Source: Naegleria gruberi (taxonomy: Eukaryota). Taken from it: a stretch of 64,000 nucleotides of DNA. A model generated the notes under the pieces. The model worked only from the letters and a program-made list of their open reading frames with translations. It searched no databases and had not been told where the DNA came from. The translations under genes were made by a program, and so were the position numbers. Every line of letters begins with the position of its first letter. Within the stretch, counting starts at the first letter, position 1. The stretch lies in NCBI GenBank assembly GCA_000004985.1, contig GG738904.1. One strand, 5' to 3'. Positions 10,501-63,038 of the stretch are shown piece after piece.

Positions 10501-13500
10501 NNNNNNNNNNNNNNNNNNNNNNNNNNNNNNNNNNNNNNNNNNNNNNNNNNNNNNNNNNNNNNNNNNNNNNNNNNNNNNNNNNNNNNNNNNNNNNNNNNNN
10601 NNNNNNNNNNNNNNNNNNNNNNNNNNNNNNNNNNNNNNNNNNNNNNNNNNNNNNNNNNNNNNNNNNNNNNNNNNNNNNNNNNNNNNNNNNNNNNNNNNNN
10701 NNNNNNNNNNNNNNNNNNNNNNNNNNNNNNNNNNNNNNNNNNNNNNNNNNNNNNNNNNNNNNNNNNNNNNNNNNNNNNNNNNNNNNNNNNNNNNNNNNNN
10801 NNNNNNNNNNNNNNNNNNNNNNNNNNNNNNNNNNNNNNNNNNNNNNNNNNNNNNNNNNNNNNNNNNNNNNNNNNNNNNNNNNNNNNNNNNNNNNNNNNNN
10901 NNNNNNNNNNNNNNNNNNNNNNNNNNNNNNNNNNNNNNNNNNNNNNNNNNNNNNNNNNNNNNNNNNNNNNNNNNNNNNNNNNNNNNNNNNNNNNNNNNNN
11001 NNNNNNNNNNNNNNNNNNNNNNNNNNNNNNNNNNNNNNNNNNNNNNNNNNNNNNNNNNNNNNNNNNNNNNNNNNNNNNNNNNNNNNNNNNNNNNNNNNNN
11101 NNNNNNNNNNNNNNNNNNNNNNNNNNNNNNNNNNNNNNNNNNNNNNNNNNNNNNNNNNNNNNNNNNNNNNNNNNNNNNNNNNNNNNNNNNNNNNNNNNNN
11201 NNNNNNNNNNNNNNNNNNNNNNNNNNNNNNNNNNNNNNNNNNNNNNNNNNNNNNNNNNNNNNNNNNNNNNNNNNNNNNNNNNNNNNNNNNNNNNNNNNNN
11301 NNNNNNNNNNNNNNNNNNNNNNNNNNNNNNNNNNNNNNNNNNNNNNNNNNNNNNNNNNNNNNNNNNNNNNNNNNNNNNNNNNNNNNNNNNNNNNNNNNNN
11401 NNNNNNNNNNNNNNNNNNNNNNNNNNNNNNNNNNNNNNNNNNNNNNNNNNNNNNNNNNNNNNNNNNNNNNNNNNNNNNNNNNNNNNNNNNNNNNNNNNNN
11501 NNNNNNNNNNNNNNNNNNNNNNNNNNNNNNNNNNNNNNNNNNNNNNNNNNNNNNNNNNNNNNNNNNNNNNNNNNNNNNNNNNNNNNNNNNNNNNNNNNNN
11601 NNNNNNNNNNNNNNNNNNNNNNNNNNNNNNNNNNNNNNNNNNNNNNNNNNNNNNNNNNNNNNNNNNNNNNNNNNNNNNNNNNNNNNNNNNNNNNNNNNNN
11701 NNNNNNNNNNNNNNNNNNNNNNNNNNNNNNNNNNNNNNNNNNNNNNNNNNNNNNNNNNNNNNNNNNNNNNNNNNNNNNNNNNNNNNNNNNNNNNNNNNNN
11801 NNNNNNNNNNNNNNNNNNNNNNNNNNNNNNNNNNNNNNNNNNNNNNNNNNNNNNNNNNNNNNNNNNNNNNNNNNNNNNNNNNNNNNNNNNNNNNNNNNNN
11901 NNNNNNNNNNNNNNNNNNNNNNNNNNNNNNNNNNNNNNNNNNNNNNNNNNNNNNNNNNNNNNNNNNNNNNNNNNNNNNNNNNNNNNNNNNNNNNNNNNNN
12001 NNNNNNNNNNNNNNNNNNNNNNNNNNNNNNNNNNNNNNNNNNNNNNNNNNNNNNNNNNNNNNNNNNNNNNNNNNNNNNNNNNNNNNNNNNNNNNNNNNNN
12101 NNNNNNNNNNNNNNNNNNNNNNNNNNNNNNNNNNNNNNNNNNNNNNNNNNNNNNNNNNNNNNNNNNNNNNNNNNNNNNNNNNNNNNNNNNNNNNNNNNNN
12201 NNNNNNNNNNNNNNNNNNNNNNNNNNNNNNNNNNNNNNNNNNNNNNNNNNNNNNNNNNNNNNNNNNNNNNNNNNNNNNNNNNNNNNNNNNNNNNNNNNNN
12301 NNNNNNNNNNNNNNNNNNNNNNNNNNNNNNNNNNNNNNNNNNNNNNNNNNNNNNNNNNNNNNNNNNNNNNNNNNNNNNNNNNNNNNNNNNNNNNNNNNNN
12401 NNNNNNNNNNNNNNNNNNNNNNNNNNNNNNNNNNNNNNNNNNNNNNNNNNNNNNNNNNNNNNNNNNNNNNNNNNNNNNNNNNNNNNNNNNNNNNNNNNNN
12501 NNNNNNNNNNNNNNNNNNNNNNNNNNNNNNNNNNNNNNNNNNNNNNNNNNNNNNNNNNNNNNNNNNNNNNNNNNNNNNNNNNNNNNNNNNNNNNNNNNNN
12601 NNNNNNNNNNNNNNNNNNNNNNNNNNNNNNNNNNNNNNNNNNNNNNNNNNNNNNNNNNNNNNNNNNNNNNNNNNNNNNNNNNNNNNNNNNNNNNNNNNNN
12701 NNNNNNNNNNNNNNNNNNNNNNNNNNNNNNNNNNNNNNNNNNNNNNNNNNNNNNNNNNNNNNNNNNNNNNNNNNNNNNNNNNNNNNNNNNNNNNNNNNNN
12801 NNNNNNNNNNNNNNNNNNNNNNNNNNNNNNNNNNNNNNNNNNNNNNNNNNNNNNNNNNNNNNNNNNNNNNNNNNNNNNNNNNNNNNNNNNNNNNNNNNNN
12901 NNNNNNNNNNNNNNNNNNNNNNNNNNNNNNNNNNNNNNNNNNNNNNNNNNNNNNNNNNNNNNNNNNNNNNNNNNNNNNNNNNNNNNNNNNNNNNNNNNNN
13001 NNNNNNNNNNNNNNNNNNNNNNNNNNNNNNNNNNNNNNNNNNNNNNNNNNNNNNNNNNNNNNNNNNNNNNNNNNNNNNNNNNNNNNNNNNNNNNNNNNNN
13101 NNNNNNNNNNNNNNNNNNNNNNNNNNNNNNNNNNNNNNNNNNNNNNNNNNNNNNNNNNNNNNNNNNNNNNNNNNNNNNNNNNNNNNNNNNNNNNNNNNNN
13201 NNNNNNNNNNNNNNNNNNNNNNNNNNNNNNNNNNNNNNNNNNNNNNNNNNNNNNNNNNNNNNNNNNNNNNNNNNNNNNNNNNNNNNNNNNNNNNNNNNNN
13301 NNNNNNNNNNNNNNNNNNNNNNNNNNNNNNNNNNNNNNNNNNNNNNNNNNNNNNNNNNNNNNNNNNNNNNNNNNNNNNNNNNNNNNNNNNNNNNNNNNNN
13401 NNNNNNNNNNNNNNNNNNNNNNNNNNNNNNNNNNNNNNNNNNNNNNNNNNNNNNNNNNNNNNNNNNNNNNNNNNNNNNNNNNNNNNNNNNNNNNNNNNNN

Positions 13501-13723
13501 NNNNNNNNNNNNNNNNNNNNNNNNNNNNNNNNNNNNNNNNNNNNNNNNNNNNNNNNNNNNNNNNNNNNNNNNNNNNNNNNNNNNNNNNNNNNNNNNNNNN
13601 NNNNNNNNNNNNNNNNNNNNNNNNNNNNNNNNNNNNNNNNNNNNNNNNNNNNNNNNNNNNNNNNNNNNNNNNNNNNNNNNNNNNNNNNNNNNNNNNNNNN
13701 NNNNNNNNNNNNNNNNNNNNNNN
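7514..13723. other. Assembly gap (N run, about 6.2 kb)
   Basis: Contiguous n characters. Confidence 0.99.
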
Positions 13724-33081: not shown

Positions 33082-34095
33082 ATGACTAGTCAAGAGAGTA
33101 ATGATGGATCAATTTCCTATGGATGGTGGATTGCCACTCTTTTAATAGGAATTGTCCTGATGAGAATATTGCAATTAATTATGAAATTGAAAAGACAAAT
33201 AAGCAAGGCTGGTGGAACTCCTGGTTATTGGCAATTATTGGCTGAAGGCTTGTTTATCATGCCAATTCTTTCGCCCTATATTGCTCATGGTAATTTCCCA
33301 GTGATTCAAGGATTGATTGCTAAGGAGGAAGAGAGAGCTAAGGGAAGTGATGAAAAGCAATTGATTATTCGTGTCAGTACTCCCTATAGAAATAATTATG
33401 TAATTTGGGATAAGGATTCAGTGAAGGAAGTTTTAGTTACAAAATCATCATCCTTTCCAAAACCTTTGGATTTTTATGAACCTTTCAATATTTTCGATAA
33501 GGATGCTACTTCAATTTTGACAGCTGCCGATGGTCCAGTTTGGAAGAATCATAGACATGTGGTGGCTCCTTCATTCTCAACTGGTAATTTGGTTTTTATG
33601 AGTCAAGTGACTGTAAAGACAGTTGATGCATTGTTTAGAACAAAGTGGAATAAGTTATTGGACCAGGATAGTAAGGGATTCATTATGGATATGGAAGATA
33701 CTACAGCTGTCACTCTTCAAATTATTGGTGAAAGTGGATTTGGTATGGATTTTGGTGTTTTCGATGAAACTAGCTCTGATTCTAAAAAGTTTAGAGAAGC
33801 ATTGAATATTGTCGTGAGAGTTGACTATTATGCCAGATTCTTCCTTGCTAAAATCCCATTCCTTTACAATGCAGTTTCTGATTATACTGGAAATACAGAA
33901 GCTCTCAAGGTGATGAGTGAAAAGCTTGAACAATGCATTTCTCAAAGAGTAGCCGAATTCAAACAAGATCCAGAAAAACCAATGAATGATTTATTGTCGC
34001 TCCTTGTTAAGGCAAACATGATGGATGAAAAACTCACACTCAATGAATTGAAGAGTAACAGTTACATCTTCGTAGTTGCAGGTCATGAGTATTGA
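33082..34095 (+). pseudogene. Cytochrome P450, N-terminal half only. It ends at the I-helix ...FVVAGHE and then Y-stop because an insertion follows.
   Basis: N-terminal membrane anchor plus P450 fold up to AGHE (I-helix AGHETT). It is a paralog of the N-half of the P450 at 55239-56286 (shared ...SDAYIFS/VVAGHE). The reading frame hits TGA at 34093-95, right after CATGAG. Confidence 0.6.
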
Positions 34096-34618
34096 AAATC
34101 AGAAGGTGTTCTTAAAGATGGTCACTGGTGCCATCAATGGTTTGATTCGTGGATTTTGGTTAAAGATATTATTCCACTTGAAGAACATTCTTCAATTATT
34201 AGGAGATGTTACAGCATGCTATGTGGAAAGTACCGTTAATATTTCCAAAGATATTTTGGAAATGTACAGTTTCATAATGAAGGAATCATTTTTGGAAAGA
34301 TTAAATTCAAGAATTGAGGAGAGAAATCTTTTATGTATTGATTTTGAAATTGTTAACAATGGATTGGTAGATAGGAATGCAGAGTGTTTTAACTCATGGT
34401 ATGAAAATGTATCTAAACATCTTATTGATTGGTCAAGTAAGGCTGTAAGTAATCGATTTGCAGAGTTTACAGAGTTAGTGGATGAAATTTTTGGTCAAGT
34501 TAAGAATGATTATGCAATGATTGCTGATAAAACTATTGAAAAGAGAACAATGGAGTATAATTTTATTACTGAAAAGAAGAGAAGATTGACAGAATTGATC
34601 AAAGAGTTAAAAAAGTAG
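34085..34618 (+). CDS. Hypothetical protein of 177 aa, predicted helical. Its ATG is embedded in the P450 His-Glu codons (cATGag).
   Basis: ORF MSIENQKVFLKMVTGAINGLIRGFWLKILFHL...RLTELIKELKK in frame +2 relative to the P450. I recognise no domain. Confidence 0.3.
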   Translation: MSIENQKVFLKMVTGAINGLIRGFWLKILFHLKNILQLLGDVTACYVESTVNISKDILEMYSFIMKESFLERLNSRIEERNLLCIDFEIVNNGLVDRNAECFNSWYENVSKHLIDWSSKAVSNRFAEFTELVDEIFGQVKNDYAMIADKTIEKRTMEYNFITEKKRRLTELIKELKK

Positions 34619-34639
34619 ATTGGTAATGAGTAAATTGAA

Positions 34640-35060
34640 TTGTGTCTGTGCAATTCTGATTGTATTCTTGTAAAGTGGTGATGGTACCTGTCAGGTACCG
34701 TCACAGGTACTTGGCAGGTACGATTTTTACCATCACAGGTACCGTCACAGGTACTTGGCAGGTATCACAGGTACCATCAGGTACCATCAGGTACCATCAC
34801 AGGTACCGTCACAGGTGCAAATGGTACCTGACAAGTACAATCACAGGTACCGTCACAGGTATCTGAATTTCCTCACAGGTACCATCACAGGTACTTGGCA
34901 GGTATCACAGGTACCATCACAGGTACCATCACAGGTACCGTCACAAGTACTTGGACCATCACAAGTACCCTTACAAGGACTTGTAAGGTGCTCAACACGT
35001 ACCTACAGTGTCTGACAAGTATGGTACCTCACAATAACCATCACAGCTACAACAAACACC
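34640..35060. repeat. Imperfect tandem minisatellite, about 20 units of CACAGGTACC(A/G)TCA or CAGGTACTTGG, each centred on a KpnI palindrome GGTACC. It begins with an inverted unit that can form a hairpin.
   Basis: Repeated caggtaccatca and caggtaccgtcacaggtacttggcaggtat. At 34676-34710, tgatggtacctgtca is the reverse complement of tgacaggtaccatca. It lies between the convergent 3' ends of ORF 34085-34618 and gene 35100-36299. Confidence 0.85.
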
Positions 35061-35099
35061 ATAACAAATACTTTTTATATCTCCTCCAATCAACTATAT

Positions 35100-36299
35100 T
35101 TATTTGAAATATTTGGATTTCTTAATAGGTCTATGGACATTATGATCATTTTCTGAATCAGAACTAATACCACCTCTATCTGAAGAATCTTCTTCAACAT
35201 CTTCTTCTTCATCATCCTCTTCAACTTCACAATGATCAGCATTTCCAAAGCAAATATTGTACCAAATTGGAGGACCTTCATCAGACTTGTTACAATCATC
35301 TTTATCCATTTGCTTTTCAAAGAATAACTCCATTTCAAAGGCATCAAGTTCTTCATTCAATTGAATAACATCCTTAACAGGTGGTTCTATGATGGCTTCC
35401 TCTTCAATATAACCATTCTCATTGTAACGATTGATGAGAAGAACTGTTTCCTTTGAGGTGTCAAATATCTCTTCTTCCTCCTTCTCATTAAAATCAATAC
35501 TTTCATCATCTGCTATAGTTGCAGATTCCTTCTTTTCATACTCCACAATTAAATTCAAACCACTAACATCTGGTTTGATTACAAGACTGGAAAGCGTGTC
35601 TTCATTTAGAGATGGCAAATCATCATATGGGAAAACAATACTTTGAGTTTCACTAACGGATGAGTATCCATCTTGATCTGCTCTAGCCATTTCGACAGAA
35701 TCATCATCAGTGAGTGCATCATCTTCTGTTAGAATCAATGGTTCATTAAATACATCAACTTGTTCTTCCATCTGAGTTTCTGCACTTGATATAATCAATA
35801 AAGGTTGAACCAATTCATATCTCTCATTGGTGTAAGAGTAAAGGTCAATGTCATCATTGTTTAATAACAAGTTTAACAATGTTGAATTACTAGTCTGTGA
35901 AAGCACTTTTCCCTTCTTACTAAACTCTCCAACAAATGCTTGGAAATTGAATTCACTATTACATTGTTCCAACTCTTTGAAATAAATCAAAGAAGGGTTC
36001 ATTTCAAGTAAATCTGCCAAATCTTCTAATTTACTATCCATGGATAAAAAGTCATCATGCTTCTTCTCCTTAAAAATCAAAAGTAAGAGACAAAGTGCAA
36101 AATAATCACAAGAGTAATCTGCTGATAATCCATTAATATCATCTTGATTGATAGGATCGTTACCAAGCCAAAAAGATGTCAATTCCTTCCTTAGCTTGAT
36201 ATCCAAATAACAGAAATCACTGACAACTTCACTATAAAATTTCTTCTTTACTAATTCTTCTACTAAACACCACTTGTTGAAATATGTATTGTACAACAT
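35100..36299 (-). CDS. Hypothetical acidic (D/E-rich) protein of 399 aa, divergently transcribed from the Myb-LAGLIDADG gene
   Basis: Uninterrupted ORF MLYNTYFNKWCLVEELVKKKFYSEVVSDF...EEDDEEEDVEEDSSDRGGISSDSENDHNVHRPIKKSKYFK. I recognise no domain. It shares a 345-bp promoter region (36300-36644, containing (AT)8 and CACAC..CTCGAG..GTGTG) with the downstream + gene. Confidence 0.45.
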   Translation of the reverse strand: MLYNTYFNKWCLVEELVKKKFYSEVVSDFCYLDIKLRKELTSFWLGNDPINQDDINGLSADYSCDYFALCLLLLIFKEKKHDDFLSMDSKLEDLADLLEMNPSLIYFKELEQCNSEFNFQAFVGEFSKKGKVLSQTSNSTLLNLLLNNDDIDLYSYTNERYELVQPLLIISSAETQMEEQVDVFNEPLILTEDDALTDDDSVEMARADQDGYSSVSETQSIVFPYDDLPSLNEDTLSSLVIKPDVSGLNLIVEYEKKESATIADDESIDFNEKEEEEIFDTSKETVLLINRYNENGYIEEEAIIEPPVKDVIQLNEELDAFEMELFFEKQMDKDDCNKSDEGPPIWYNICFGNADHCEVEEDDEEEDVEEDSSDRGGISSDSENDHNVHRPIKKSKYFK

Positions 36300-36644
36300 G
36301 ATGGATTATTCCTTTTTTTTCAAAAACAAAAGCTTTCACACAACCTCGAGTCGTGTGAAATGTCTCACACTCTAATATTTTAATATTTTTATAAGGCTTG
36401 AATATATATATATATATATTGAAAAGGGATTGACCGAAACTGGAAGACACATTAATTGGATATCTAAAGAGACCAAACAAATTTTCCTCAGAATTGAAGA
36501 GTCACGTCGCTACGTCCCTCAAGACATCCACACAACTTTGCAAATTAATACAATTGAGAAAAAAAAACTACTTTTATTTTCGACTCAACTTTGTTACAAG
36601 TAACAACACACATCAAATTCCAACACAGAACTCAATATAGCAGA

Positions 36645-38966
36645 ATGATAAGAAAAAACTGGTTAAAAGAAGAAGAAGATCTTTTGGTCAAATTGGTAAA
36701 GGAAAAAGGCCACAATTGGACTGAAATTGCTCCCAACTTCGATGTTACTCCAAATGCCTGCCACAAAAAGTATAAGGATTTGTTAAAGAATCTTGGCAGG
36801 AAAAGATCGTTCTGGACTGATGAAATGAAAGCTAATCTCCTTAAATTAGCAAAAGAATATGCCGATAAAGGAATAGAGAAATGGAAGATTATTGAGGAAA
36901 AATTAGGAAAAGAAGCTAAAGCTTGCCAACAGCATTTTTATTATTTAGTCAAACAGCACGGGTTGGATTCTAATGATTTCAACAGCGTCAGACCATTTTG
37001 GACCATGGAAGAGAAGCGCGAATTGACTGAGTTAGTCAATTTGCATGGAAGGAAGTGGAAGAAAATTGAGAAACTAATTAGCTGCAACAGAGATGCTCAT
37101 TCTTGTCAGAGCCAGTTTATGCTATTAGAAAGTAGACAGAATGATCCAATTGAAAAGAAGTTGAACGATATCTTTCAAGCAACGACTTCAGAGACAGATT
37201 TGAATGAAATCTCTCTTTACGAATTCTTCAATATCCCAACAAGTAGATACAATGGGGTTCCAGCATCGACTTTGTTGGTGGATCAAGCAGATGAAGTTGA
37301 TGAAGAAACATTTCATCGTTCTTACATGGCTGGAGATACTGAATTTAGTGTACGTGAGGTTGCAACTGGTAGATTGGTCAGAAAAACCATTGAGGAGATT
37401 TATCTTTCCAGTGGAACATATGAAACATATAGTATTGAATCTGGATTTAATGTGGAAGAAATTGGTAAGTTTCGTTTCAATTACTATTTTCAAAGAATAA
37501 TAATAATGAAAGAATGTAAATTGTTTCCAGCAAATGAAGTATTAGAGTTGAGTGCTACTTGTTTCAAAGCAAAATTATATTTCAATGAATGTGCTCGAAT
37601 TGTTGAAGAGAAACGTTTCATATTTTCCGAACAAGTTCAAGTCCGTCCAGATGAGTGCAGTAGTGTGAGATTACCTGTATCAGATCTTCAAGACAATATG
37701 TTCATCATTAATAACTATCAATTGAAATCCAAGGAAAAGCTTGTAAGAACATCATTACCATGTGGTCAACTTACTGACACCACCCAAACAAAAGAATGTA
37801 AGTATTTTATGAATTATTCTCATAATATTTTAAAGATTTTGACATTTTGTTCAGAACTTTCCCAACTCTAGTTGACTCCAAAGACAAACAGGGAGTCATG
37901 GTTCAACTATTGGGAGCCTATTTAGCAGATGGTGATGGAGGATACTTTAAATTGTATTTTAATGCCAAAAATGAGCAAGAACTTACCTATTATTTTACAG
38001 ATTTCTTAAAAGAAATTTGTGAATTGAATTCAGAGACAATAAGAGAGGATCTTAAATTCAAGAAAGAGGAAGAGTATGTCACCATTAAGCTCAATGATAA
38101 GAATGCTGACAAGGATATTGAACGAGTCTTACAAAATGGTTATCAAATATCCGGGTCCATACTTGTTGCACCTGCATGGTATGTTTTTCACTTTCAATAC
38201 ATTTTTACTAGTAACAAATAGTACTGGCTTACACAGATTTTTAAAAGAAATAGAATTGTTATGTAATAAGTATAATGGCAGTTACCAAACTAGAAAGAAT
38301 TTCTCTTCCATCTTCAACATTACAAATTTTGGTATGTTTAGCTTGTACAAATTTTTCGAAGGTTCTGTACAAGGAGATGGCACATTAGAGAGTAATCGTG
38401 TAACGTTTGGTCAGAATTGTTCAATTTCAGATACTCACCAACAGTACTTTAATCAGGTCCACCATTGTGCAACCATGCTTGGGTTAAAGACTGGCGTGGG
38501 TAAAGTGTGTGAAGAAACTACAGGTTTGAAAATGACTGGTAAGAACATGACCATTTTTGAAAGTGAAGGACTTGAGAAAAAGAAAGTAAATGCAGATGTT
38601 GTGTTTAGACCATTTAATCTTACAGTTCAAAGATTAATAGGTGAATCAATGAAGAAGATGTACTGTTTCAAGAAGAGTAATCACTCCTTCCCAATGTTTA
38701 ATGGAATGATAGTGCAAAATGTTGATACTGATCTAGTTTCTGCTAAAATATGTTATGGGAATAGATGGGAAATTCGTGAAATGGACAACTATGAATCTGC
38801 TGCCACTTTCTGCTTGAAGAAATATATTGCTTCCTTAGGGTTTCCAAGTGACCGTATGACAAGAAATGCTGTAAGAAGATTAATACTAAAAATAGAAGGA
38901 ATAGTATCTGTTAAAAGAAAGCAAAAATCAAACAAGGAATCAAACAAGAAAGTTAAAACACAATAA
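36645..38966 (+). CDS. Fusion protein with three N-terminal Myb/SANT-type repeats and a C-terminal two-motif LAGLIDADG endonuclease-like domain. Exons: 36645-37464 (or read-through), 37531-37801, 37855-38178, 38222-38966.
   Basis: Myb repeats: WLKEEEDLLVKLVKEKGHNWTEIAPNF..Y, FWTDEMKANLLKLAKEYADKGIEKWKIIEEKL..F, FWTMEEKRELTELVNLHGRKWKKIEKL..F, with W-x18-22-W-x18-(Y/F) spacing. LAGLIDADG motif 1: VMVQLLGAYLADGDGGYFKLYF (37907-37945). Motif 2, about 130 aa later: SLYKFFEGSVQGDGTLESNRVTF (about 38352-38390). Introns: GTAAGT..CAG (37465-37530, in-frame and optional), GTATTT..TTCAG (37802-37854), GTATGT..ATAG (38179-38221, short). Confidence 0.5.
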
Positions 38967-39085
38967 CATTTCAATTAAAGAATATATTTACTGAACTTTA
39001 TTAAATGACTTTTTATTTCTGAATAAACAAAAGTATATTGAGCACTTTTGCATCCATTTGAAAATTGACAATCATTTCTGCTGAA

Positions 39086-39162
39086 ATGGTCATGTAAGAA
39101 GTATGAATTATGTCATTCTGGAAACTCTTCGTATTCATCCACCTGTAACATGTGTTTAGAGT
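39086..39162 (+). pseudogene. Degenerate P450 K-helix fragment (..NGHVRSMNYVILETLRIHPPVTCV*) just inside the right end of the insertion
   Basis: ETLRIHPP matches the P450 ExxR / HPP K-helix consensus. MNYV matches the paralog at 56520-56560 (IMNYVNAVIMET), not the adjacent C-half (MDYIHGCVMECLRLHPPV). It is out of order for a P450, which runs I-helix then K-helix. Confidence 0.45.
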
Positions 39163-39178
39163 TGCTAAGAAGACAACC

Positions 39179-39842
39179 ACATGAGGTTCGTGTTTTATAA
39201 TTAATTTTACAAGTGTTTAACAAAATATTTAAGACGACTGCCACAACCATGCAATGGTTAATGTACGAATTGTCCAAGCGTCCAGAAGCTCAACAAAAGG
39301 CCAGAGAAGAAGCAATCAGAATTGGAGGAGGTGACAATGTTTTGAGAGCTCCAGATTTTGATGATTACAACAATATGGACTATATTCATGGTTGTGTAAT
39401 GGAATGCTTACGTCTCCATCCACCAGTCGTTTCCATGGTAAAAACCTGTGCCAAATCTACCAAAATTGGAAAAACAAGCATTCCAAAGGGATCTTGCATC
39501 TATGTAAATGCCAAGGCCTGTCACTTGTACGGTGAAGATTTTAACACCACTGAATTTACTGGTGCTCAATTCGCTCCAGAAAGATTTTTGGATAAGGATT
39601 TCAAACAAAAGGTTCAAACAAGTGGAGCATGGTTCCCATTCAATATGAGTAATAGAAAATGCATTGGTTACATGTTTGCCCAAATTGAATTGTGTATCAT
39701 GTTGTGTAGAATGTTGCAATTTTATGAATTCAAATTGTTGAATGATGAAAGTAAACCAGCTGAGAAGGTTGAAGATCTTCCTGGTATTACCTTTAGACCA
39801 TCTTCTAATTTGAAGGTTTTGGTAACAAGAAGAACAAAATAA
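39179..39842 (+). CDS. Cytochrome P450 C-terminal half. A 7-nt micro-exon ACATGAG (39179-39185, the His-Glu of AGHETT) is followed by a GTTCGT..TTTAAG intron (39186-39233) and exon 39234-39842 (TTATTMQWLMYEL...heme loop FPFNMSNRKCIGYMFA).
   Basis: Contains ECLRLHPP (ExxR), PERF and FxxxxxRxCxG (FNMSNRKCIG). Together with 33082-34089 it would form a complete P450 if the insertion were absent. Confidence 0.6.
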
Positions 39843-55238: not shown

Positions 55239-56928
55239 ATGGCTTTAAGCGAAATTATTTTGGGAATTGTTTGCGTTTTTGCTGCAATTCTTCTCTTCTT
55301 CCTCATTTCAATTTATAATAATTATAAGAAAGTGAGTCACATTCCAGGTGCTTTCCAATTCTTCTTGACTTTTAAGAATATTCCAATCATTTCACCTTAT
55401 TTGAGTTTCGATGGACACAAGAGAATGGAACAATTGGTCAAAACTCACGGAGATCCAAAAACTGGACTTGTCAGATTATCCATGTTCGATAGAAATATGG
55501 TTGTAGTTTCAGATAGAGACATGTTGAAGGAATTGTTGGTCGTTAAGGGTGGAATTTTCATCAAATCTTGGAAATTATATGAAGTTTTCAATGCTTTCGG
55601 CAAGAATATCTTATCAATTCTCGATGGTACCAGTGATTCATGGAAAAATCATCACAAAGTAGCTTCAGGTGCTTTTGCTTCTAAAAATTTGGAATACATG
55701 TCAAGAGTTGCCTCAAAATCTTTGGATTTGTGTAAGGAAAGTAAATGGGATGGTGAAATGGAAAAGGCATTGAAGGAAGGAAAGGAAGGTATTATTATTG
55801 ATACCAATGCTGATTTTAGTGATATTACTTTGGGTAAGTTTCGAATTTTGACATTGTCATGTTGACCTTTCGAATAATAGACGTTCTTGGTAAGGCTGCT
55901 TTCGGTTTGGACTTTTCCATCTTTGATGAAACTAACCCAGAAGGTAGAATTTTCAGAAAATCCCTCGAAAAGATGTTTACCACTGGTGTAATCTTAAAAC
56001 GTTTCGTCGGATTAAATCCAGTCCTTTCCTGGGCTTTCCCATGGGCTTGCAAATATACTGGTTTAGATAAGGCAGTAAAAGTTGTGAGTGATAAGTTGGA
56101 TGCAATCATTGCGGAAAGAACTCGTGAAGTAGAATTGCGTGGAATGGAAGATGGAAACACATCCGAAACTGGTGTTGAAGAAAGAAAGGATTTGTTGAGT
56201 GTTTTGGTTGAAGCCAATTTCATTCAAAAGGGAATCTTGTCAGGTGATGAACTCAAATCTGACGCTTATATCTTTTCGCTTGCTGGGTATGTATTCGAAT
56301 TTTAAACTATTTGTCCTAATTTATTTTCATAGACATGAGGTTCGTATTTGCAAATTTACAATTTTTTGTAATGATTTTTTTATTTGAAATTTTAGACAAC
56401 TTCAACAACTTTACAATGGGTTTGTTACGAATTATCAACAAAACCAGATATTCAAAATAAGATTCGTGAAGAGATTGATTTACATCTCGGAAAGGGTGTA
56501 AATGCCAGAGCTCCAAACTTTGACGATTATCCAATTATGAACTATGTCAATGCTGTCATTATGGAAACTGCAAATAGAAGTGATCGAAACTGGGATAAAC
56601 CTTTAGAATTCATTCCAGAAAGATATCCAATGAATGCTGAAGAACAATTGAGAATTCAACATGATTTCACTTGGATTCCATTCTCTATGGGTAATCGTAA
56701 ATGCATTGTAAGTACTTTTTGAAAATTTCACAAGTTTACAAAATTTTTCAGGGTTTCAAGTTTGCTCAAATTGAAGCTTTTACAATTCTTGTAAGATTAC
56801 TTCAATTCTATGAATTAGGATTGGATAATGATGAATCTAATCCAAAGGATCAAATTGTTGATGTTCCTGGCGTTACAGTTCGTCCAGGAAATTGTAGAAT
56901 TATTCTCAAACCAAGAAAGGATCTTTAA
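55239..56928 (+). CDS. Cytochrome P450 paralog, 5 exons including a 7-nt micro-exon: 55239-55833, 55881-56286, 56333-56339, 56396-56707, 56752-56928. It lacks the K-helix/ExxR segment and may be a pseudogene or a divergent P450.
   Basis: ...YIFSLAG|HE|TTSTTLQWVCYEL...FSMGNRKCIG|FKFAQIE. The micro-exon ACATGAG is flanked by GTATGT..ATAG and GTTCGT..TTAG introns. Relative to 39234-39842 about 38 aa are missing (LHPPVV...HLYGED), which leaves METANRSD where ExxR should be. Confidence 0.55.
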
Positions 56929-57579
56929 TTTCGAATACAATTTTGTAAATAGTAAAAATAAATAAAATAATTTAATTCATAATATTGTTGATGATACAGT
57001 GGAGGTTGAAAATGCAATTACAAGTTGTGGTTGTTTGAAAATTTATGGAGCTTGTCAGAGGGTAAATACTGACATGTACAGTTGACAAGATCTTGAGTAA
57101 TAATGAAGATCTTTTGGAGTTTAGAATCAATTTTGTTAACACTTACAATTGGATGTTTCTCATCCTCTTCGATCTGAGCTTTACAGCAAGTAATATTTCC
57201 AAAAATAGCTATTGTTTGCAATGTTAAAAAAATTAATGAGACACATTTTCGATATTTTGTTTAAAATTACCTCAAATGCAAGGTGGAAAAACAAAATTAT
57301 TTCTTTTAAGGTCTAAGTGTTTCATAATATGTCTGTTGCCAACAACCTGCCAATCCACTACAAATTAAATCTGCACAGCTTTTGAAAATAACATTTTGCG
57401 TCTAAACCACACGCCCCAACAAAAAAAATGCAACAAACAAGAATGCTTCACTCATCACCCAACCATTCCCACAACACCAACAACAAAAAAATCACAATAT
57501 TAATTCATCATGAGCAAAGGTATAAACAAATCATCAGTAAGTAACCATATAAACAAGTACTCTAATAATTATAAAAGAA

Positions 57580-58389
57580 CACTAAGAAGAAAACTAACAC
57601 CAAGACAACTGTGAAGAAAACCAACACCAAGAACACTGTGAAGAATACCAATACCAAGAACACTGTGAAGAACACTGTGAAGAACACCAATAAGAAGAAT
57701 ACCATCAAAAAGAAGAATCCAAAGCGTAAGTGTTATTGTTATTTATTAATTTACTAACATTGTTAATAGTTGCTCGGGAAGTTGTCAATTACACAACTGT
57801 GAATGCCAAATGGTTCCTTTATGCTCCAACCACCACCGAAAGTGGTTTCAAAGCTACATTTATTCCAGTCAGTGGTCCATTTAACAGAGTTGAAGAAATG
57901 AAACGAGTTGCTTGTTTGCAAATGTTTTGTGAAAGTTGTGCTATAACTTTGGGTTTTTATTTGGATCCAAGTATGTTCAAAAGATTTCAAACTGGTATTC
58001 GTATTGCATCATTGAAACCTGAATGGTTCTCTCATTATTTCGAGTCATGTGGTGGAAAAATGAAAAACAGAGTTCAATATATTCGTTACAATGGTCACAG
58101 TTTGAGTATTACTTGTCCTTCTTATGAATTCTATGGTTTGGAAAATATGCCACCTTTGAATTGTAATGGTAGTTATGCAAGCACGGTTTTTCAAGTTTCC
58201 CAACCAATATTGATGAACCATCCATTTCAACCACACTTTAAATGGATTGAACAGTGGAAATTTGTTTACAGATTGTATTTCTCTAAACTCGTATTTATAT
58301 GCAATCCAGTAACGAATATGGTTTCAGTAGATTTGGAATTTACAAAGGATGTACAAAGTATGGATTGTACTGGTTTCCAAATTGTTTAA
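57580..58389 (+). CDS. Hypothetical protein. An upstream exon encodes K/T/N-rich 7-aa repeats (DNA 21-bp tandem repeats, 57580-57724), then intron 57725-57771, then main exon 57772-58389. The start codon was not resolved.
   Basis: Open frame KNTKKKTNTKTTVKKTNTKNTVKNTNTKNTVKNTVKNTNKKNTIKKKNPK, then GTAAGT...TACTAAC..AATAG and LAREVVNYTTVNAKWFLYAPTTTESGF.... The 21-mer is ACCAAGAACACTGTGAAGAAT, 4-5 times. Confidence 0.4.
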
Positions 58390-58399
58390 TAAATAATTT

Positions 58400-58879
58400 T
58401 TATTCATTAAAATCAATTAATGACAAGTCACATTCTTCTCGTTTCAATTTCAAGAATAGCACATTATTGAACTTGAATGGATTTTCTGCTAAATTGTCTG
58501 TTGTATCAACATGAACAAATAAAGACTTGAAGGCTCTATTTTCTGCATACAAAATTGAATTTAAAGAGTAAAGTTTTAATCTTCGGGTTGCAGAGGGTAA
58601 ATCAAATACTTCACGTAGAATTTTCAAATATTTAGTATCTGTAAATTCTACAACACCTTCATCCTCATCAATTCCATAATCAATCAAAGTTCTTTTTAAT
58701 TCATCCATTAGAGCTCTTGGATTAACAATAGATGGTTTCATAACACAATTCGGAATATACAGATGATCATAAAATTGATCATCTGTAATTTCTTCTCCTT
58801 CACAACAAATCATAACTACGGGCAATTCGTAAATGGTGTTATAAATAGGAATTATATTGGCTTCAGCAACACGAGGCAT
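58400..58879 (-). CDS. Hypothetical protein (about 159 aa from MPRVAEAN...), divergent from the H3-variant gene
   Basis: The ORF track extends it to 59005, but that extension overlaps the conserved 80-bp element and the H3-variant start. The internal Met at 58877-58879 is more plausible. Confidence 0.4.
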   Translation of the reverse strand: MPRVAEANIIPIYNTIYELPVVMICCEGEEITDDQFYDHLYIPNCVMKPSIVNPRALMDELKRTLIDYGIDEDEGVVEFTDTKYLKILREVFDLPSATRRLKLYSLNSILYAENRAFKSLFVHVDTTDNLAENPFKFNNVLFLKLKREECDLSLIDFNE

Positions 58880-58887
58880 TTTGTCAG

Positions 58888-58966
58888 TTAAAATATTTGA
58901 TCGTCGATTCCCCGTGCCAGTGTTGTGGTAGTAAAAGTGATTCCGTAATCGACTCTCAAAAAAACT
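58888..58966. repeat. Conserved element of about 80 bp with an internal hairpin (copy 1). It fills the 92-bp divergent promoter between gene 58400-58879 (-) and the H3-variant gene (+).
   Basis: TTAAAATATTTGATCGTCGATTCCCCGTGCCAGTGTTGTGGTAGTAAAAGTGATTCCGTAATCGACTCTCAAAAA. Copy 2 lies at 62542-62617. Confidence 0.8.
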
Positions 58967-58971
58967 GAAAA

Positions 58972-59532
58972 ATGACTCAAACTTCTTCATCAACAGCAGA
59001 AACATCTACAGAAACCTCGGAAGTTCCAAACAACACATCAACCAAAACACCATCAACAACACCATCAAAAACACTATCAAAAACATCAACCAAAACACCA
59101 TCAAAAACATCAACCAAAACACCATCAAAAACACCAAGAAAAACACCAAGAAAAACACCAAAAAAAACACCAGCAAAGAAATCTGCAAAAAAACCATTCA
59201 CAGGAGGAATTAAAAAGCCACACAGATATAGACCAGGTACTGTAGCTTTAAGAGAAATCCGAAAGTATCAAAAAAGCACTGAATTATTGATAAAAAAAAA
59301 ACCTTTTTGTAGGTTGGTGAGAGAAGTTGCTCAAGATTACAAATCTGATGTTAGATTTCAAGCGAATTCACTCCTTGCACTTCAAGAAGCAGCTGAGGCA
59401 TTTATTATTGATATTTTTGAGGATACTAATCTTTGTGCCATTCACTCCAAAAGAGTTACTATTTTGCTCAAAGATATGCAACTTGCATTAAGAGTAAAAG
59501 GTGTTAATTATATTGGTTTATTAAATAAATAA
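58972..59532 (+). CDS. Histone H3 variant with a canonical histone fold and a long divergent T/S/P/K-rich N-terminal tail built from TPSKT repeats
   Basis: Histone fold: [97 protein letters not shown]. The tail: [45 protein letters not shown]. Confidence 0.8.
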
Positions 59533-59565
59533 TATTAATCATCATCATTTAATATCTTTAAAAAA

Positions 59566-62545
59566 ATGTCTTGTACTTTAGAAGATATTTTTCAAGACAC
59601 ACAATTCAAAAAGTTCAACGATAAAGGAAAACCGTATTGTGAAGGAGTTGTACATTTAAAACAAGAAGACTTATACAAATTTTTAGGAATAAAAGAAGTT
59701 AAAAAGAAAAGGATATTAGAAACCTCCGAATTAAATCGATGTAAAAATGNNNNNNNNNNNNNNNNNNNNNNNNNNNNNNNNNNNNNNNNNNNNNNNNNNN
59801 NNNNNNNNNNNNNNNNNNNNNNNNNNNNNNNNNNNNNNNNNNNNNNNNNNNNNNNNNNNNNNNNNNNNNNNNNNNNNNNNNNNNNNNNNNNNNNNNNNNN
59901 NNNNNNNNNNNNNNNNNNNNNNNNNNNNNNNNNNNNNNNNNNNNNNNNNNNNNNNNNNNNNNNNNNNNNNNNNNNNNNNNNNNNNNNNNNNNNNNNNNNN
60001 NNNNNNNNNNNNNNNNNNNNNNNNNNNNNNNNNNNNNNNNNNNNNNNNNNNNNNNNNNNNNNNNNNNNNNNNNNNNNNNNNNNNNNNNNNNNNNNNNNNN
60101 NNNNNNNNNNNNNNNNNNNNNNNNNNNNNNNNNNNNNNNNNNNNNNNNNNNNNNNNNNNNNNNNNNNNNNNNNNNNNNNNNNNNNNNNNNNNNNNNNNNN
60201 NNNNNNNNNNNNNNNNNNNNNNNNNNNNNNNNNNNNNNNNNNNNNNNNNNNNNNNNNNNNNNNNNNNNNNNNNNNNNNNNNNNNNNNNNNNNNNNNNNNN
60301 NNNNNNNNNNNNNNNNNNNNNNNNNNNNNNNNNNNNNNNNNNNNNNNNNNNNNNNNNNNNNNNNNNNNNNNNNNNNNNNNNNNNNNNNNNNNNNNNNNNN
60401 NNNNNNNNNNNNNNNNNNNNNNNNNNNNNNNNNNNNNNNNNNNNNNNNNNNNNNNNNNNNNNNNNNNNNNNNNNNNNNNNNNNNNNNNNNNNNNNNNNNN
60501 NNNNNNNNNNNNNNNNNNNNNNNNNNNNNNNNNNNNNNNNNNNNNNNNNNNNNNNNNNNNNNNNNNNNNNNNNNNNNNNNNNNNNNNNNNNNNNNNNNNN
60601 NNNNNNNNNNNNNNNNNNNNNNNNNNNNNNNNNNNNNNNNNNNNNNNNNNNNNNNNNNNNNNNNNNNNNNNNNNNNNNNNNNNNNNNNNNNNNNNNNNNN
60701 NNNNNNNNNNNNNNNNNNNNNNNNNNNNNNNNNNNNNNNNNNNNNNNNNNNNNNNNNNNNNNNNNNNNNNNNNNNNNNNNNNNNNNNNNNNNNNNNNNNN
60801 NNNNNNNNNNNNNNNNNNNNNNNNNNNNNNNNNNNNNNNNNNNNNNNNNNNNNNNNNNNNNNNNNNNNNNNNNNNNNNNNNNNNNNNNNNNNNNNNNNNN
60901 NNNNNNNNNNNNNNNNNNNTTACATACTGTTCACACAAGAAAACAGAATGATAAAGTATGTGTAGATAAATTACCAGAAAAAGTAATGATTAAATTGTCA
61001 ATGGATGGTAGAGAATTTGGAAATTTACGAACAGTTGTAGTTACTTTGAATATTTTAAATTTACATTTATTCGGAACACAAGAAAGAGACTGTGTTTTCC
61101 CAATTCTAATGTATATAGGTGAAGAGAAAGATATTATTAATTATATAACTGAAATTGAAAAAGAAGTTATTGAACTTTCTACCAAACATATTACTATCAA
61201 AGAAAACGAGCATGATGCTACACTATCACTTGAAAATACAACCCAAACAATTCCATTAGAATTCTATTGGGTGAGTGATTTAAAATCACTTGAATATTGT
61301 TCATTATTGAAAGAACATGCTATGTTTTGTCCTTTCTGCAACATTAAGAAACAAAATTCATTGTCTGGGATTTGTTCTGAAAATAGTAGAAATTTACAAC
61401 ACAAAATGGGTGTTAAATCATCCAATATTTTCATATGCATTTTGCATATGGATGAACGAATTACTGAATATATTTTGAAAATGACCTTAAAAACTTCGGA
61501 ACTTGAAAAGCAAATGAAAACCAATATTTGTTCATTAGAAGGTTTTGCTGATTTTAATTTTCATTCATCAAGTGTTTTAGTGAAAGATACAATCGAAGAA
61601 GAAAATGCTCTCACAGTTAAGGAATATTCATTTATGTTATCTGGCGGGCATTGTAATAAGCTTTTTGGATCTTTTGATAAAGTTTTTGGATTTTTGAAAG
61701 ATTCAAACTCAAATATGTATAATATTTGGAAAAAATACAAATCAATTAGACAGTGGTTGTATTATACAAATGAAGATTTGGAAAAGAAATCATTAAAGGA
61801 TTGGGAAAATTTTGATTCTGAGTTAAATGAATGGAGATTGCTTTTTGTTCTACAAAAAGCTGATAGTGGAAGAATAGGAGATTACATTCATATTGCCACT
61901 GCACATCTTTATGACTTGCTTTCAACTTATGGAAGTCTGGTTCCTCTTTCAAATCAAGGTGTAGAAAGTTCTCATCAATTAGATTGTTTGATTATGGAAA
62001 GAGGGACAAGTAAGGGTAAAATGTCTATTGGTACCAAAAAAGCTCAAGCTGGCTCCTCAAAACCAAACGTGGAAACTGTATCCAAACCTGCTTCCCATAC
62101 TCTTGAGTCTAGTGATCTTGATAATGAGCAAGAACATAAGGAATTTAATTATGAATCATTTATTAAGAAGACAGAATCTTGTGACTGGAATGATTTATTC
62201 CAAGTTTGTCAAATCATGCTGAAGAAACTTAGAAAGTTGTATTTATCTTTTACTTGTGAAGAAGTACTATTTGTCCGGTTAGAAAGAAGGACTGGTAAGG
62301 TAATAAGAAAAGATTGGACAAGAGACATTTTAACTATGTCTCCCAACTTTACTCTGCCTATCCGAAAACCAACCAATGTTCTCATTCAAAAACCAGATAA
62401 CATTAACACTGAAGTGATATCTCCACAGCTTGCTCCATCCCAAGATGTTCCTAAAAGAACAGTTGAACTCAAACAATCCCAGGAATATGGATTGGTTGTG
62501 AATGGTGATGATGATGGGTTGATGAATGATGATGTCTTCTATTAA
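59566..62545 (+). CDS. Large protein interrupted by a 1.17-kb N gap (59750-60919). It may be related to Mutator-superfamily transposases, judged from one C-terminal motif.
   Basis: The open frame before and after the gap shares frame continuity only by assumption. The post-gap 540 aa include CPFCNIKK...ILHMDERI and ...IATAHLYDLLSTYGSLVPLSNQGVESSHQLDCLIME (compare the Mutator/IS256 E-motif SNxxxESxN/H). The call is weak. Confidence 0.3.
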
Positions 62546-62617
62546 AAATATTTGATCGTCGATTCCCCGTGCCAGTGTTGTGGTAGTCAAAGCGATTCCG
62601 GAATCGACTTTCAAAAA
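62542..62617. repeat. Conserved 80-bp element, copy 2, with a perfect 9-bp stem GTCGATTCC (62558-62566) / GGAATCGAC (62600-62608). It starts right at the stop codon of gene 59566-62545.
   Basis: TTAAAAATATTTGATCGTCGATTCCCCGTGCCAGTGTTGTGGTAGTCAAAGCGATTCCGGAATCGACTTTCAAAAA, about 90% identical to 58888-58966. Confidence 0.8.
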
Positions 62618-63038
62618 TTCAATAAAATGTGCCATCAAATAAAATTTTATCAAAGGCCTTTATTGTTAGAAATAATAATTATTATTTAAATATTAAACAT
62701 TGTTACTTCATATAATCAAATTAAAAGCATGTTAAATGTTTAATATATAACAAATAATAACTGTAATAATCGGAATTGTAAAATTCTGGAAGATTTTAAA
62801 CAGTAGTGGTTTTAATTGGTTCAAAAAGTGGCAAAAAAAAATTTGGCGCAAAGAGCGGTCGACAATTTGTCGAGTCTTGCTGAATGGTTATTTTCAACTC
62901 TAGATTTGTAGTGTGAAAAGCAAACATTCAATTTCAAAATCTCTTTTACCCGAATGGCCTTTTGCGGTTAGAGCTCGTTATCACGCACTTGCTCAAGAAT
63001 CATTTTGAAAAAAAAACTTTACGAAACTTGCCTAAACC

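Follow-up and report, generated by a model that had tools for sequence, protein, structure and literature searches.

A cytochrome P450 gene of Naegleria gruberi with a predicted 7-nt micro-exon and a 111-nt in-frame deletion

The P450 gene and its 7-nt exon

The DNA considered here is a 64-kb stretch of the Naegleria gruberi genome (64,000 nucleotides of contig GG738904.1, assembly GCA_000004985.1; hereafter the window), and our subject is the cytochrome P450 gene that it carries on the plus strand at positions 55239-56928 (hereafter the NEG-M copy). An earlier note on this DNA, made by a model from the sequence, had proposed exons of 406, 7 and 312 nt separated by introns of 46 and 56 nt, and these agree exactly with the corresponding parts of the gene model as rebuilt by us, in which five exons and four GT...AG introns give a spliced coding sequence of 1497 nt, in frame, for 498 amino acids. 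The features listed below are those of this gene model, save that the micro-exon is placed by the reading frame and motif that it restores, and the deletion junction by a blastn comparison of the homologous contig L008 (described below) with the window, together with the sequence itself.

Exon 1, 55239..55833, plus strand: 595 nt; start codon, N-terminal membrane anchor and start of the P450 domain
Intron 1, 55834..55880, plus strand: 47 nt, phase 1; TGG/gtaagtttcgaatttt...aatag/AC
Exon 2, 55881..56286, plus strand: 406 nt; 3' end ...SLAG, with GG of the Gly334 codon
Intron 2, 56287..56332, plus strand: 46 nt, phase 2; gtatgt...catag
Micro-exon ACATGAG, 56333..56339, plus strand: 7 nt; last base of the Gly334 codon, His335 and Glu336
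Intron 3, 56340..56395, plus strand: 56 nt, phase 0; gttcgt...ttttag
Exon 4, 56396..56707, plus strand: 312 nt; TTSTTLQW... via PERY to ...FSMGNRKCI; holds the heme-ligand Cys439 and the deletion junction
Deletion junction, 56568..56569, plus strand: GAAAC/TGCAAAT
Intron 4, 56708..56751, plus strand: 44 nt, phase 0; splits the heme-binding signature between CI and GF
Exon 5, 56752..56928, plus strand: 177 nt including the TAA stop; L-helix and C-terminus

An exact-sequence look-up identifies the 498-residue product, letter for letter, with XP_002671545.1 of N. gruberi strain NEG-M (EFC38801.1, NAEGRDRAFT_73318, UniProt D2VWB0), which GenBank labels "predicted protein", places on a 297-kb scaffold and which implies use of the micro-exon; the gene model with its 7-nt exon has therefore been public in GenBank since the genome release. 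Neither the accessions of the locus nor the metagenome sample used below is mentioned in the literature searched, where texts naming both Naegleria and "microexon" did so only in passing and in unrelated topics.

The product matches the Pfam p450 profile (PF00067) with 186 bits (cut-off 22.8); the match falls into two parts, of which the first joins residues 46-394 to profile positions 5-331, and the AlphaFold2 (AF2) model predicts a helix over residues 3-31. The heme-thiolate signature FxxGxRxCxG is present as FSMGNRKCIG, in which F432, C439 and G441 are invariant, and G435 at least 90% conserved, in alignments of 35 and 36 sequences; the PERF/meander motif is present as PERY, with P410 and R412 nearly invariant. 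The I-helix motif (A/G)Gx(D/E)T(T/S) reads AGHETT, provided that the 7-nt exon is spliced in. The best protein matches are P450s of N. lovaniensis, N. fowleri and Willaertia (exon 5 shows 79% tblastn identity to the N. lovaniensis ortholog), and the family is a Heterolobosea-specific expansion with at least nine genes in N. lovaniensis and additional ones in both N. fowleri and Willaertia. Within N. gruberi at least one further member (P0054) has its ExxR motif intact.

Several lines of evidence bear on whether so short an exon is used. If it is omitted the frame shifts into early stops, and retention of intron 2 likewise leads to a stop. We enumerated the open-frame GT-AG splice solutions in 56200-56460, and of these 45 the sole one to give the family consensus without an indel is that containing the micro-exon (...SLAGHETTSTT..., SLAGHETTSTTLQW), in line with the earlier note's claim that AGHETT depends on it. 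The residues concerned, A333-G334-H335-E336-T337-T338, show little or no variation across the aligned family. An in-frame alternative with a single intron, from a donor at 56291 (GTATTC) to the acceptor at 56395, reads AGY/TT and costs the conserved Glu and one residue of I-helix register. The other introns of the window open with GTAAGT, GTATGT or GTTCGT, end in YAG and measure 38-56 nt, and the flanks of the micro-exon fit these signals and lengths.

Further evidence comes from what we call the sister strain, a N. gruberi-like organism present in the ENA metagenome assembly ERZ929261 (run ERR1078381), whose contig L008 is 98.2% identical in nucleotides to the window over the P450 gene. L008 carries an identical ACATGAG with both flanking introns, and a gene call made on the sister strain (P0050) runs into intron 2 (AGYVFEF, then a stop), i.e. 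it has the same exon 2 junction. Introns 2, 3 and 4 measure 46, 56 and 44 nt in the window and 47, 58 and 43 nt in L008, and the shared codons of the exons contain no indel; indels of 1-2 nt in the introns and none in the shared exons are what one would expect if true introns surround an exon under constraint. RNA folding around the micro-exon revealed no unusual structure (z = +0.43), and the region was unmatched in the JGI metagenomes. On these sequence comparisons the 7-nt exon is almost certainly real.

The earlier note described the two residues encoded by the micro-exon, His-Glu, as catalytic. They do not form a dyad: in the I-helix acid-alcohol pair of P450s the Glu is the acid and the Thr, here encoded in the next exon, its partner, and the His occupies the variable x position of the motif. 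As regards splicing, introns of 38-56 nt suggest intron definition, with splice sites presumably paired across each intron; since two spliceosomes cannot sit 7 nt apart, the two flanking introns are presumably removed one after another.

The 111-nt deletion and the state of the gene

When the product is aligned with nine full-length family members, 37 residues (111 nt, in frame) are found to be absent between VIMET and ANRS. The lost segment encodes LRIHPPVTSVLRVAKKTTTLGEFTIPKDTAVQINILA; L008 retains the block (ETLRIHPPVTSVLRVAKKTTTLGEFTIPKDTAVQINILAANRSE), so that its exon 4 measures 423 nt against 312 nt in the window, and the 37 codons are kept in every other homolog compared as well. The Glu of the ExxR motif (E393) is still there, and the loss starts with the Arg, a position with at least 90% conservation in the alignment, and extends as far as the residue preceding ANRS, so that the product reads E-T-A-N-R where the sister strain has ETLR. 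The earlier note had described a loss of about 38 residues including the whole of ExxR; the in-frame loss of the block from the K helix and ExxR to the beta-sheet is borne out, with the corrections that it amounts to 37 residues and spares the Glu.

The junction shows 1 nt of microhomology (C) and the deleted segment lacks GT-AG bounds, which points to simple end joining or slippage, rather than loss of a cryptic intron, behind the deletion. An exitron, i.e. loss of the 111 nt as a cryptic intron, was considered and rejected: the 3' edge of the segment in L008 is ...ATCTTGGC/T (in N. lovaniensis and the Logan Naegleria sp. contig L002 it is ATTTTCAG/T), and the segment does not start with GT. 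A P450-like fragment elsewhere in the window, at 39103-39180, was also rejected as the excised piece: it extends across the left breakpoint, includes only about half of the lost block and shows 14% divergence.

Among solved structures the best sequence matches of the product are CYP3A4 (1.4e-38) and CYP97A3/LUT5 (6e-36), at 20-24% identity, and the best fold matches to its AF2 model are CYP97A3/C1 and CYP3A4 (TM 0.65-0.76). CYP3A4 and the CYP97 enzymes share with the Naegleria family the motifs AG(H/Y)ETT, ExxR, PERF and FxxGxRxCxG, and an N-terminal membrane anchor, but the NEG-M copy has no equivalent of CYP3A4 L364-A400, the stretch to which the lost segment aligns (5vcd_A alignment, with chain positions converted to native CYP3A4 numbering by an offset of +20). 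Within this stretch lie what we take to be the ExxR Arg (R365), SRS5 (I369-E374) and the heme-propionate ligand R375 of CYP3A4, and presumably also strands beta1-4, beta2-1, beta2-2 and beta1-3. The in-frame deletion in NEG-M would, on this alignment, remove the second half of the K helix, SRS5, the propionate Arg and four strands; measured against the complete core fold of a competent monooxygenase (beta1-4, beta2, beta1-3, SRS5 and the propionate Arg), 37 residues are absent. ExxR mutants of P450s generally fail to incorporate heme, and we infer that the deletion product is unable to fold or to bind heme normally.

The AF2 model of the product (an identical database entry, P0049) has a pLDDT of 88, falling to about 75 at the junction, and shows no strands in the region of the deletion. 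AF2 is insensitive to destabilising deletions, and neither stability nor heme binding was judged by the model. The CYP157 family of Streptomyces is naturally without ExxR, yet folded and heme-binding, so that this motif is not absolutely invariant among P450s. CYP157 proteins, however, substitute residues within a full-length K helix, whereas the NEG-M copy has lost 37 residues that include four beta strands and SRS5; because these are physically missing, CYP157 provides no precedent for function here.

The copy in L008 is the syntenic ortholog of the NEG-M copy, with synteny reaching into both flanks. Over 300 shared codons the two differ by 12 synonymous and 2 non-synonymous changes and by no exon indel, and of the 2 amino-acid replacements one (E to D) lies 5 codons past the deletion junction. 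Since the sister strain, at a divergence of about 2%, still has the block, the deletion must have happened recently. Neither stops nor frameshifts disrupt the gene, the deletion being its single lesion. Comparison with other species gives dN/dS of 0.12-0.16, like that of other homolog pairs, at saturated dS; Tajima relative-rate tests detected no acceleration (p > 0.1), and private changes at otherwise invariant sites number 14 of 212 in the window protein and 15 of 213 in that of the metagenome contig L003. The relaxed selection for which the earlier note had suggested a dN/dS check finds no support, and its description of the gene as decaying holds in the weakest sense only, i.e. for the 111-nt deletion.

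Taken together, we consider it likely that the locus is a five-exon, membrane-anchored P450 gene with a genuine 7-nt exon, turned by a recent 111-bp deletion into a young null allele or incipient pseudogene, so that NEG-M probably carries a gene broken not long ago and not a novel type of protein. Several points weigh against this reading. The open reading frame (ORF) downstream of the deletion is intact, FSMGNRKCIG and PERY are kept and the AF2 fold is confident, and residual or altered function may accordingly persist; the deletion could belong to just one of the haplotypes in a heterozygous strain or, with lower likelihood, reflect a fault of the assembly; the in-frame single intron of 56291-56395 offers an alternative splice form; and a search for N. 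gruberi transcript contigs of the gene found none.

The deletion protein might, first, be a selected P450 of no catalytic or of altered function, i.e. a pseudoenzyme or heme-free scaffold, kept in N. gruberi. Its intact frame, the retained heme-Cys loop, PERY and AGHETT, a deletion length that is a multiple of 3, the 12:2 ratio of synonymous to non-synonymous differences from the sister strain and the P450 fold retained in the AF2 model would all suit such a derivative. We nevertheless regard it as improbable: the sister strain is intact, and the deletion is too young for the 12:2 ratio to report on selection after it; an Arg that is at least 90% conserved is lost along with SRS5 and four core strands; and a change from E to D has occurred 5 codons beyond the junction. 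Of the earlier note's proposal of a non-catalytic derivative, what survives is that this copy is probably damaged or non-catalytic; that it evolved as a derivative is disfavoured by the recency of the deletion.

The second explanation attributes the gap to the draft Sanger assembly or a clone, or to one of two haplotypes. The scaffold is indeed a draft, with several runs of N in the window, and a 29-mer across the deletion junction had no match in the JGI metagenomes. Against this stand a clean in-frame junction, unique flanks with no repeat on which an assembly could collapse, the fact that sequencing errors do not produce losses of 111 nt, and a JGI gene model that was built on this very sequence; we judge an artefact or haplotype to have a low probability.

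It is similarly doubtful that the 7-nt exon is unused, whether because intron 2 is a disabling insertion, because other sites (donor 56291, giving AGYTT) are chosen, or because the gene is silent. The in-frame alternative, the lack of transcript contigs and the damage that the gene has suffered anyway would be compatible with disuse; however, intron 2 is canonical (GTATGT...T-rich...CATAG) and of typical local length, it is kept in the otherwise intact gene of the sister strain, where a 1-nt indel in it is tolerated, the micro-exon solution alone preserves the invariant Glu and the I-helix register, and RNA folding is unremarkable. A processed (retroposed) pseudogene, for which nothing speaks beyond its suggestion in the earlier note, can be dismissed with near certainty in view of four spliceosomal introns, synteny with the intact sister-strain gene on both sides, and normal 5' and 3' flanks in which a poly(A) tract was not found.

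Intron positions and the origin of the micro-exon

The homologs compared differ in where, and whether, an intron interrupts the region of AGHETT:

N. lovaniensis ortholog (P0001): no intron near AGHETT
Paralogs of N. lovaniensis (P0002) and N. fowleri (P0004): no intron near AGHETT
Logan Naegleria sp. (L002): one intron after GAG, in position and phase the same as intron 3 of the window
Metagenome contigs L003/L004: one intron after CATG, phase 1
N. lovaniensis P0009: one intron about 3 codons upstream of AGHETT
Willaertia (L007): one intron after ACAACT

Intron 2 is missing from the homologs of N. lovaniensis, N. fowleri, L002, L003/L004 and Willaertia and was seen solely in the N. gruberi lineage. 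Intron 3 is older than intron 2, since its position is shared by another Naegleria species (L002). Intron 1 is present in L008, with 3 substitutions, and its exact position is unoccupied in all homologs examined from other species; the counterpart of intron 4 in L002 is placed 8 nt upstream. From these positions the micro-exon is the result of two neighbouring intron positions, 7 nt apart, being occupied at once in one gene: intron 2 (phase 2, in the Gly codon) would have joined the older intron 3 (phase 0, after the Glu), leaving a 7-nt exon between them. The upstream intron 2 would be either a gain specific to this lineage or an intron lost everywhere else.

As for where intron 2 might have come from, introns 1 and 2, each confined to the N. 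gruberi lineage, both lie in a TGG/.../AC context, measure 47 and 46 nt, end in ATAG and open with GTAWGT(N)TTCGAATTTT, a start pattern otherwise absent from the 64-kb window. In shuffle-tested alignments intron 1 resembles intron 2 with p of about 0.02, intron 2 resembles intron 3 with p of about 0.04, and intron 4 resembles an intron-like piece in the neighbouring paralog (see below) with p = 0.0005, all of these values being indecisive after multiple testing of AT-rich sequence. That intron 2 is a recent copy of intron 1, or that both are copies of one small introner-like element, is a possible though rather unlikely origin; if true, it would amount to an intron gain that can be dated and traced in the sequence, in an excavate with few introns, and would give a micro-exon a concrete origin. 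As separate observations on the same sequence, the palindrome TTCGAA occurs 37 times in the whole window against about 6 expected from base composition, and three of the four window sites of TTCGAATTT are inside the P450 gene or a short way upstream of it (54988, 55840 and 56294).

Across the family (contigs L001-L007 and L011 compared with the introns of the window) intron positions cluster at three spots and rarely coincide between species: five positions fall within about 8 codons of AGHETT, three near DVLGKAGFGLD and two in the heme-binding GNRKCIG. Recurrent gain or sliding could account for such near-coincidences. Known cases of near-intron pairs, "intron sliding" or recurrent gain show the same kind of close or shifted positions, and the micro-exon is a case in which two of them occur in one gene; for the study of intron evolution the family provides a compact series of positions that are close without coinciding.

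Micro-exons in P450 genes have been described before. The P450 genes of Phanerochaete chrysosporium have frequent introns of 45-55 bp and micro-exons of 2-10 amino acids, with a shortest exon of 6 bp (Doddapaneni et al. 2005, PMC1184071), dimensions like those of the 7-nt exon between introns of 46 and 56 nt in Naegleria. P. chrysosporium is, however, a basidiomycete with an intron-rich P450ome, and the Naegleria micro-exon sits exactly inside the AGxxTT motif. Naegleria genes average about 1.7-2 exons (PMC8296547), so that five exons, one of them a micro-exon, are unusual for this organism.

The neighbouring paralog, other features and wider meaning

A second P450 gene lies upstream in the window, where it is split by an insertion of 5.1 kb:

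Paralog N-terminal half, 33082..34089, plus strand: ends ...VVAGHE (GCAGGTCATGAG); annotated separately as the 337-aa XP_002671536.1, ending AGHEY
Insertion splitting the paralog, 34090..39233, plus strand: 5,144 bp, at an E/T codon boundary; absent from L009/L010
ORF in the 5.1-kb insertion: 34076-34618
Minisatellite in the 5.1-kb insertion, 34680-35050: imperfect, GGTACC-rich, with ACAGGTACC(A/G)TC units in a 12-nt register and spacings of 12, 32 and 44 nt
Acidic ORF in the 5.1-kb insertion, 35100-36299, minus strand
Myb-domain gene XP_002671538.1 in the 5.1-kb insertion, 36645-38966 (spliced), plus strand: three Myb repeats
Dead P450 K-helix fragment, 39103..39180, plus strand: MNYVILETLRIHPPVTCV, an in-frame TAG, then RVAKKTT; abuts a copy of ACATGAG
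ACATGAG and 48 nt of intron-like sequence (gttcgtg...tttaag), 39179..39233, plus strand: not a micro-exon
Paralog C-terminal half (TTATTMQW...), 39234..39842, plus strand, found by tblastn: ExxR (ECLR), PERF and heme Cys intact

In the sister strain (L009/L010) the paralog is uninterrupted, with AGHETTATT contiguous and free of an intron, and a malic-enzyme gene stands upstream as it does in the window; the C-terminal half is 98.8% identical to L009. The earlier note had read the recurrence of ACATGAG and the following intron start at 39179-39191 as the same unit in a second paralog. The literal repeat is there, the 13-mer ACATGAGGTTCGT being found at two window sites, 39179 and 56333, but it does not make a second micro-exon: AGHE of the paralog is contiguous at 34078-34089, where it is followed by TATTGA, and no AG precedes 39179. 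We also rejected the 5.1-kb insert as a giant intron, there being no GT after CATGAG and no AG before 39179, and the alternatives being out of frame. CATGAG occurs both just before the left edge of the insertion (34084-34089) and inside its right end (39180-39185), and terminal inverted repeats are absent from the insertion. The dead fragment at 39103-39180 matches the K-helix region of the intact ortholog (L008 762-851) with 85.6% identity.

Immediately to the left of the paralog junction, the window and L009 disagree at 10 of 26 nt (34063-34089 against L009 4981-5007; YIFVV against YVMVI), with flanks that differ by about 2%; the patch reads TACATCTTCGTAGTTGCAGGTCATGAG in the window and is unusually GC-rich in the sister strain (TACGTCATGGTTATTGCCGGCCACGAA), which suggests that one lineage or the other underwent gene conversion here.

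Homologs of the Myb-domain protein were found in N. gruberi only, where a second genomic copy (NAEGRDRAFT_47624, on a 573-kb scaffold) is 95% identical. By eye its C-terminal half contains a LAGLIDADG-like LLGAYLADGDGG, FFEGSVQGDGT and a GMIVQN resembling Hint/intein block G; these endonuclease-like motifs have no sequence match in Pfam or the PDB, and the AF2 model has a pLDDT of 31.

Downstream of the P450 gene, at a distance of 430 bp, lies an insertion of about 5.56 kb (57356-62913, including a 1.17-kb N gap) that is absent from L008. It is bounded by perfect, CACTA-like inverted repeats of 10 bp (CACTACAAAT...ATTTGTAGTG) with no obvious target-site duplication, and looks like a polymorphic DNA transposon. 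Between these repeats, on the plus strand at 58972-59532, an ORF with a histone H3 fold (Pfam Histone, 4e-37) carries a long, repetitive N-terminal tail rich in Ser, Thr, Pro and Lys; it would be unusual for a mobile element to carry a histone variant. About 12.6 kb of the window consists of runs of N (985-6105, 7514-13723, 59750-60919 and three short ones), which distort composition figures; without N the GC content is about 34%, in agreement with the 33% published for N. gruberi (PMC8296547).

Among the homologs, the N. lovaniensis gene C9374_008893 (P0009) was considered as a second Naegleria P450 without ExxR and rejected, since its annotated "intron" of about 40 nt hides a 1-nt frameshift (contig L011, about 1930-1975: TGTTACGA for an expected TGTTTACGA), through which the annotation seems to lack ExxR/HPPV. 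It is either a pseudogene or the product of a homopolymer sequencing error.

The micro-exon is a fresh instance of a kind already described, and our current understanding of P450s and of splicing is left unchanged; the unpublished detail lies in the strain-specific deletion, the lineage-specific origin of the micro-exon and the paralog broken by an insertion. For annotation, gene callers that are not intron-aware cut homologs exactly at the site of the 7-nt exon, which encodes part of the oxygen-activation motif of P450s: P0006 and P0007 stop at AGH or AGHE, and P0050 is likewise truncated at this motif. For the biology of the species, the reference strain NEG-M carries lesions in both neighbouring P450 genes, i.e. 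the deletion in one and the 5.1-kb insertion in the other, and a wild relative has both intact. With both NEG-M copies broken, the reference genome gives P450 counts, and leads to metabolic inferences, that understate the repertoire of the species.

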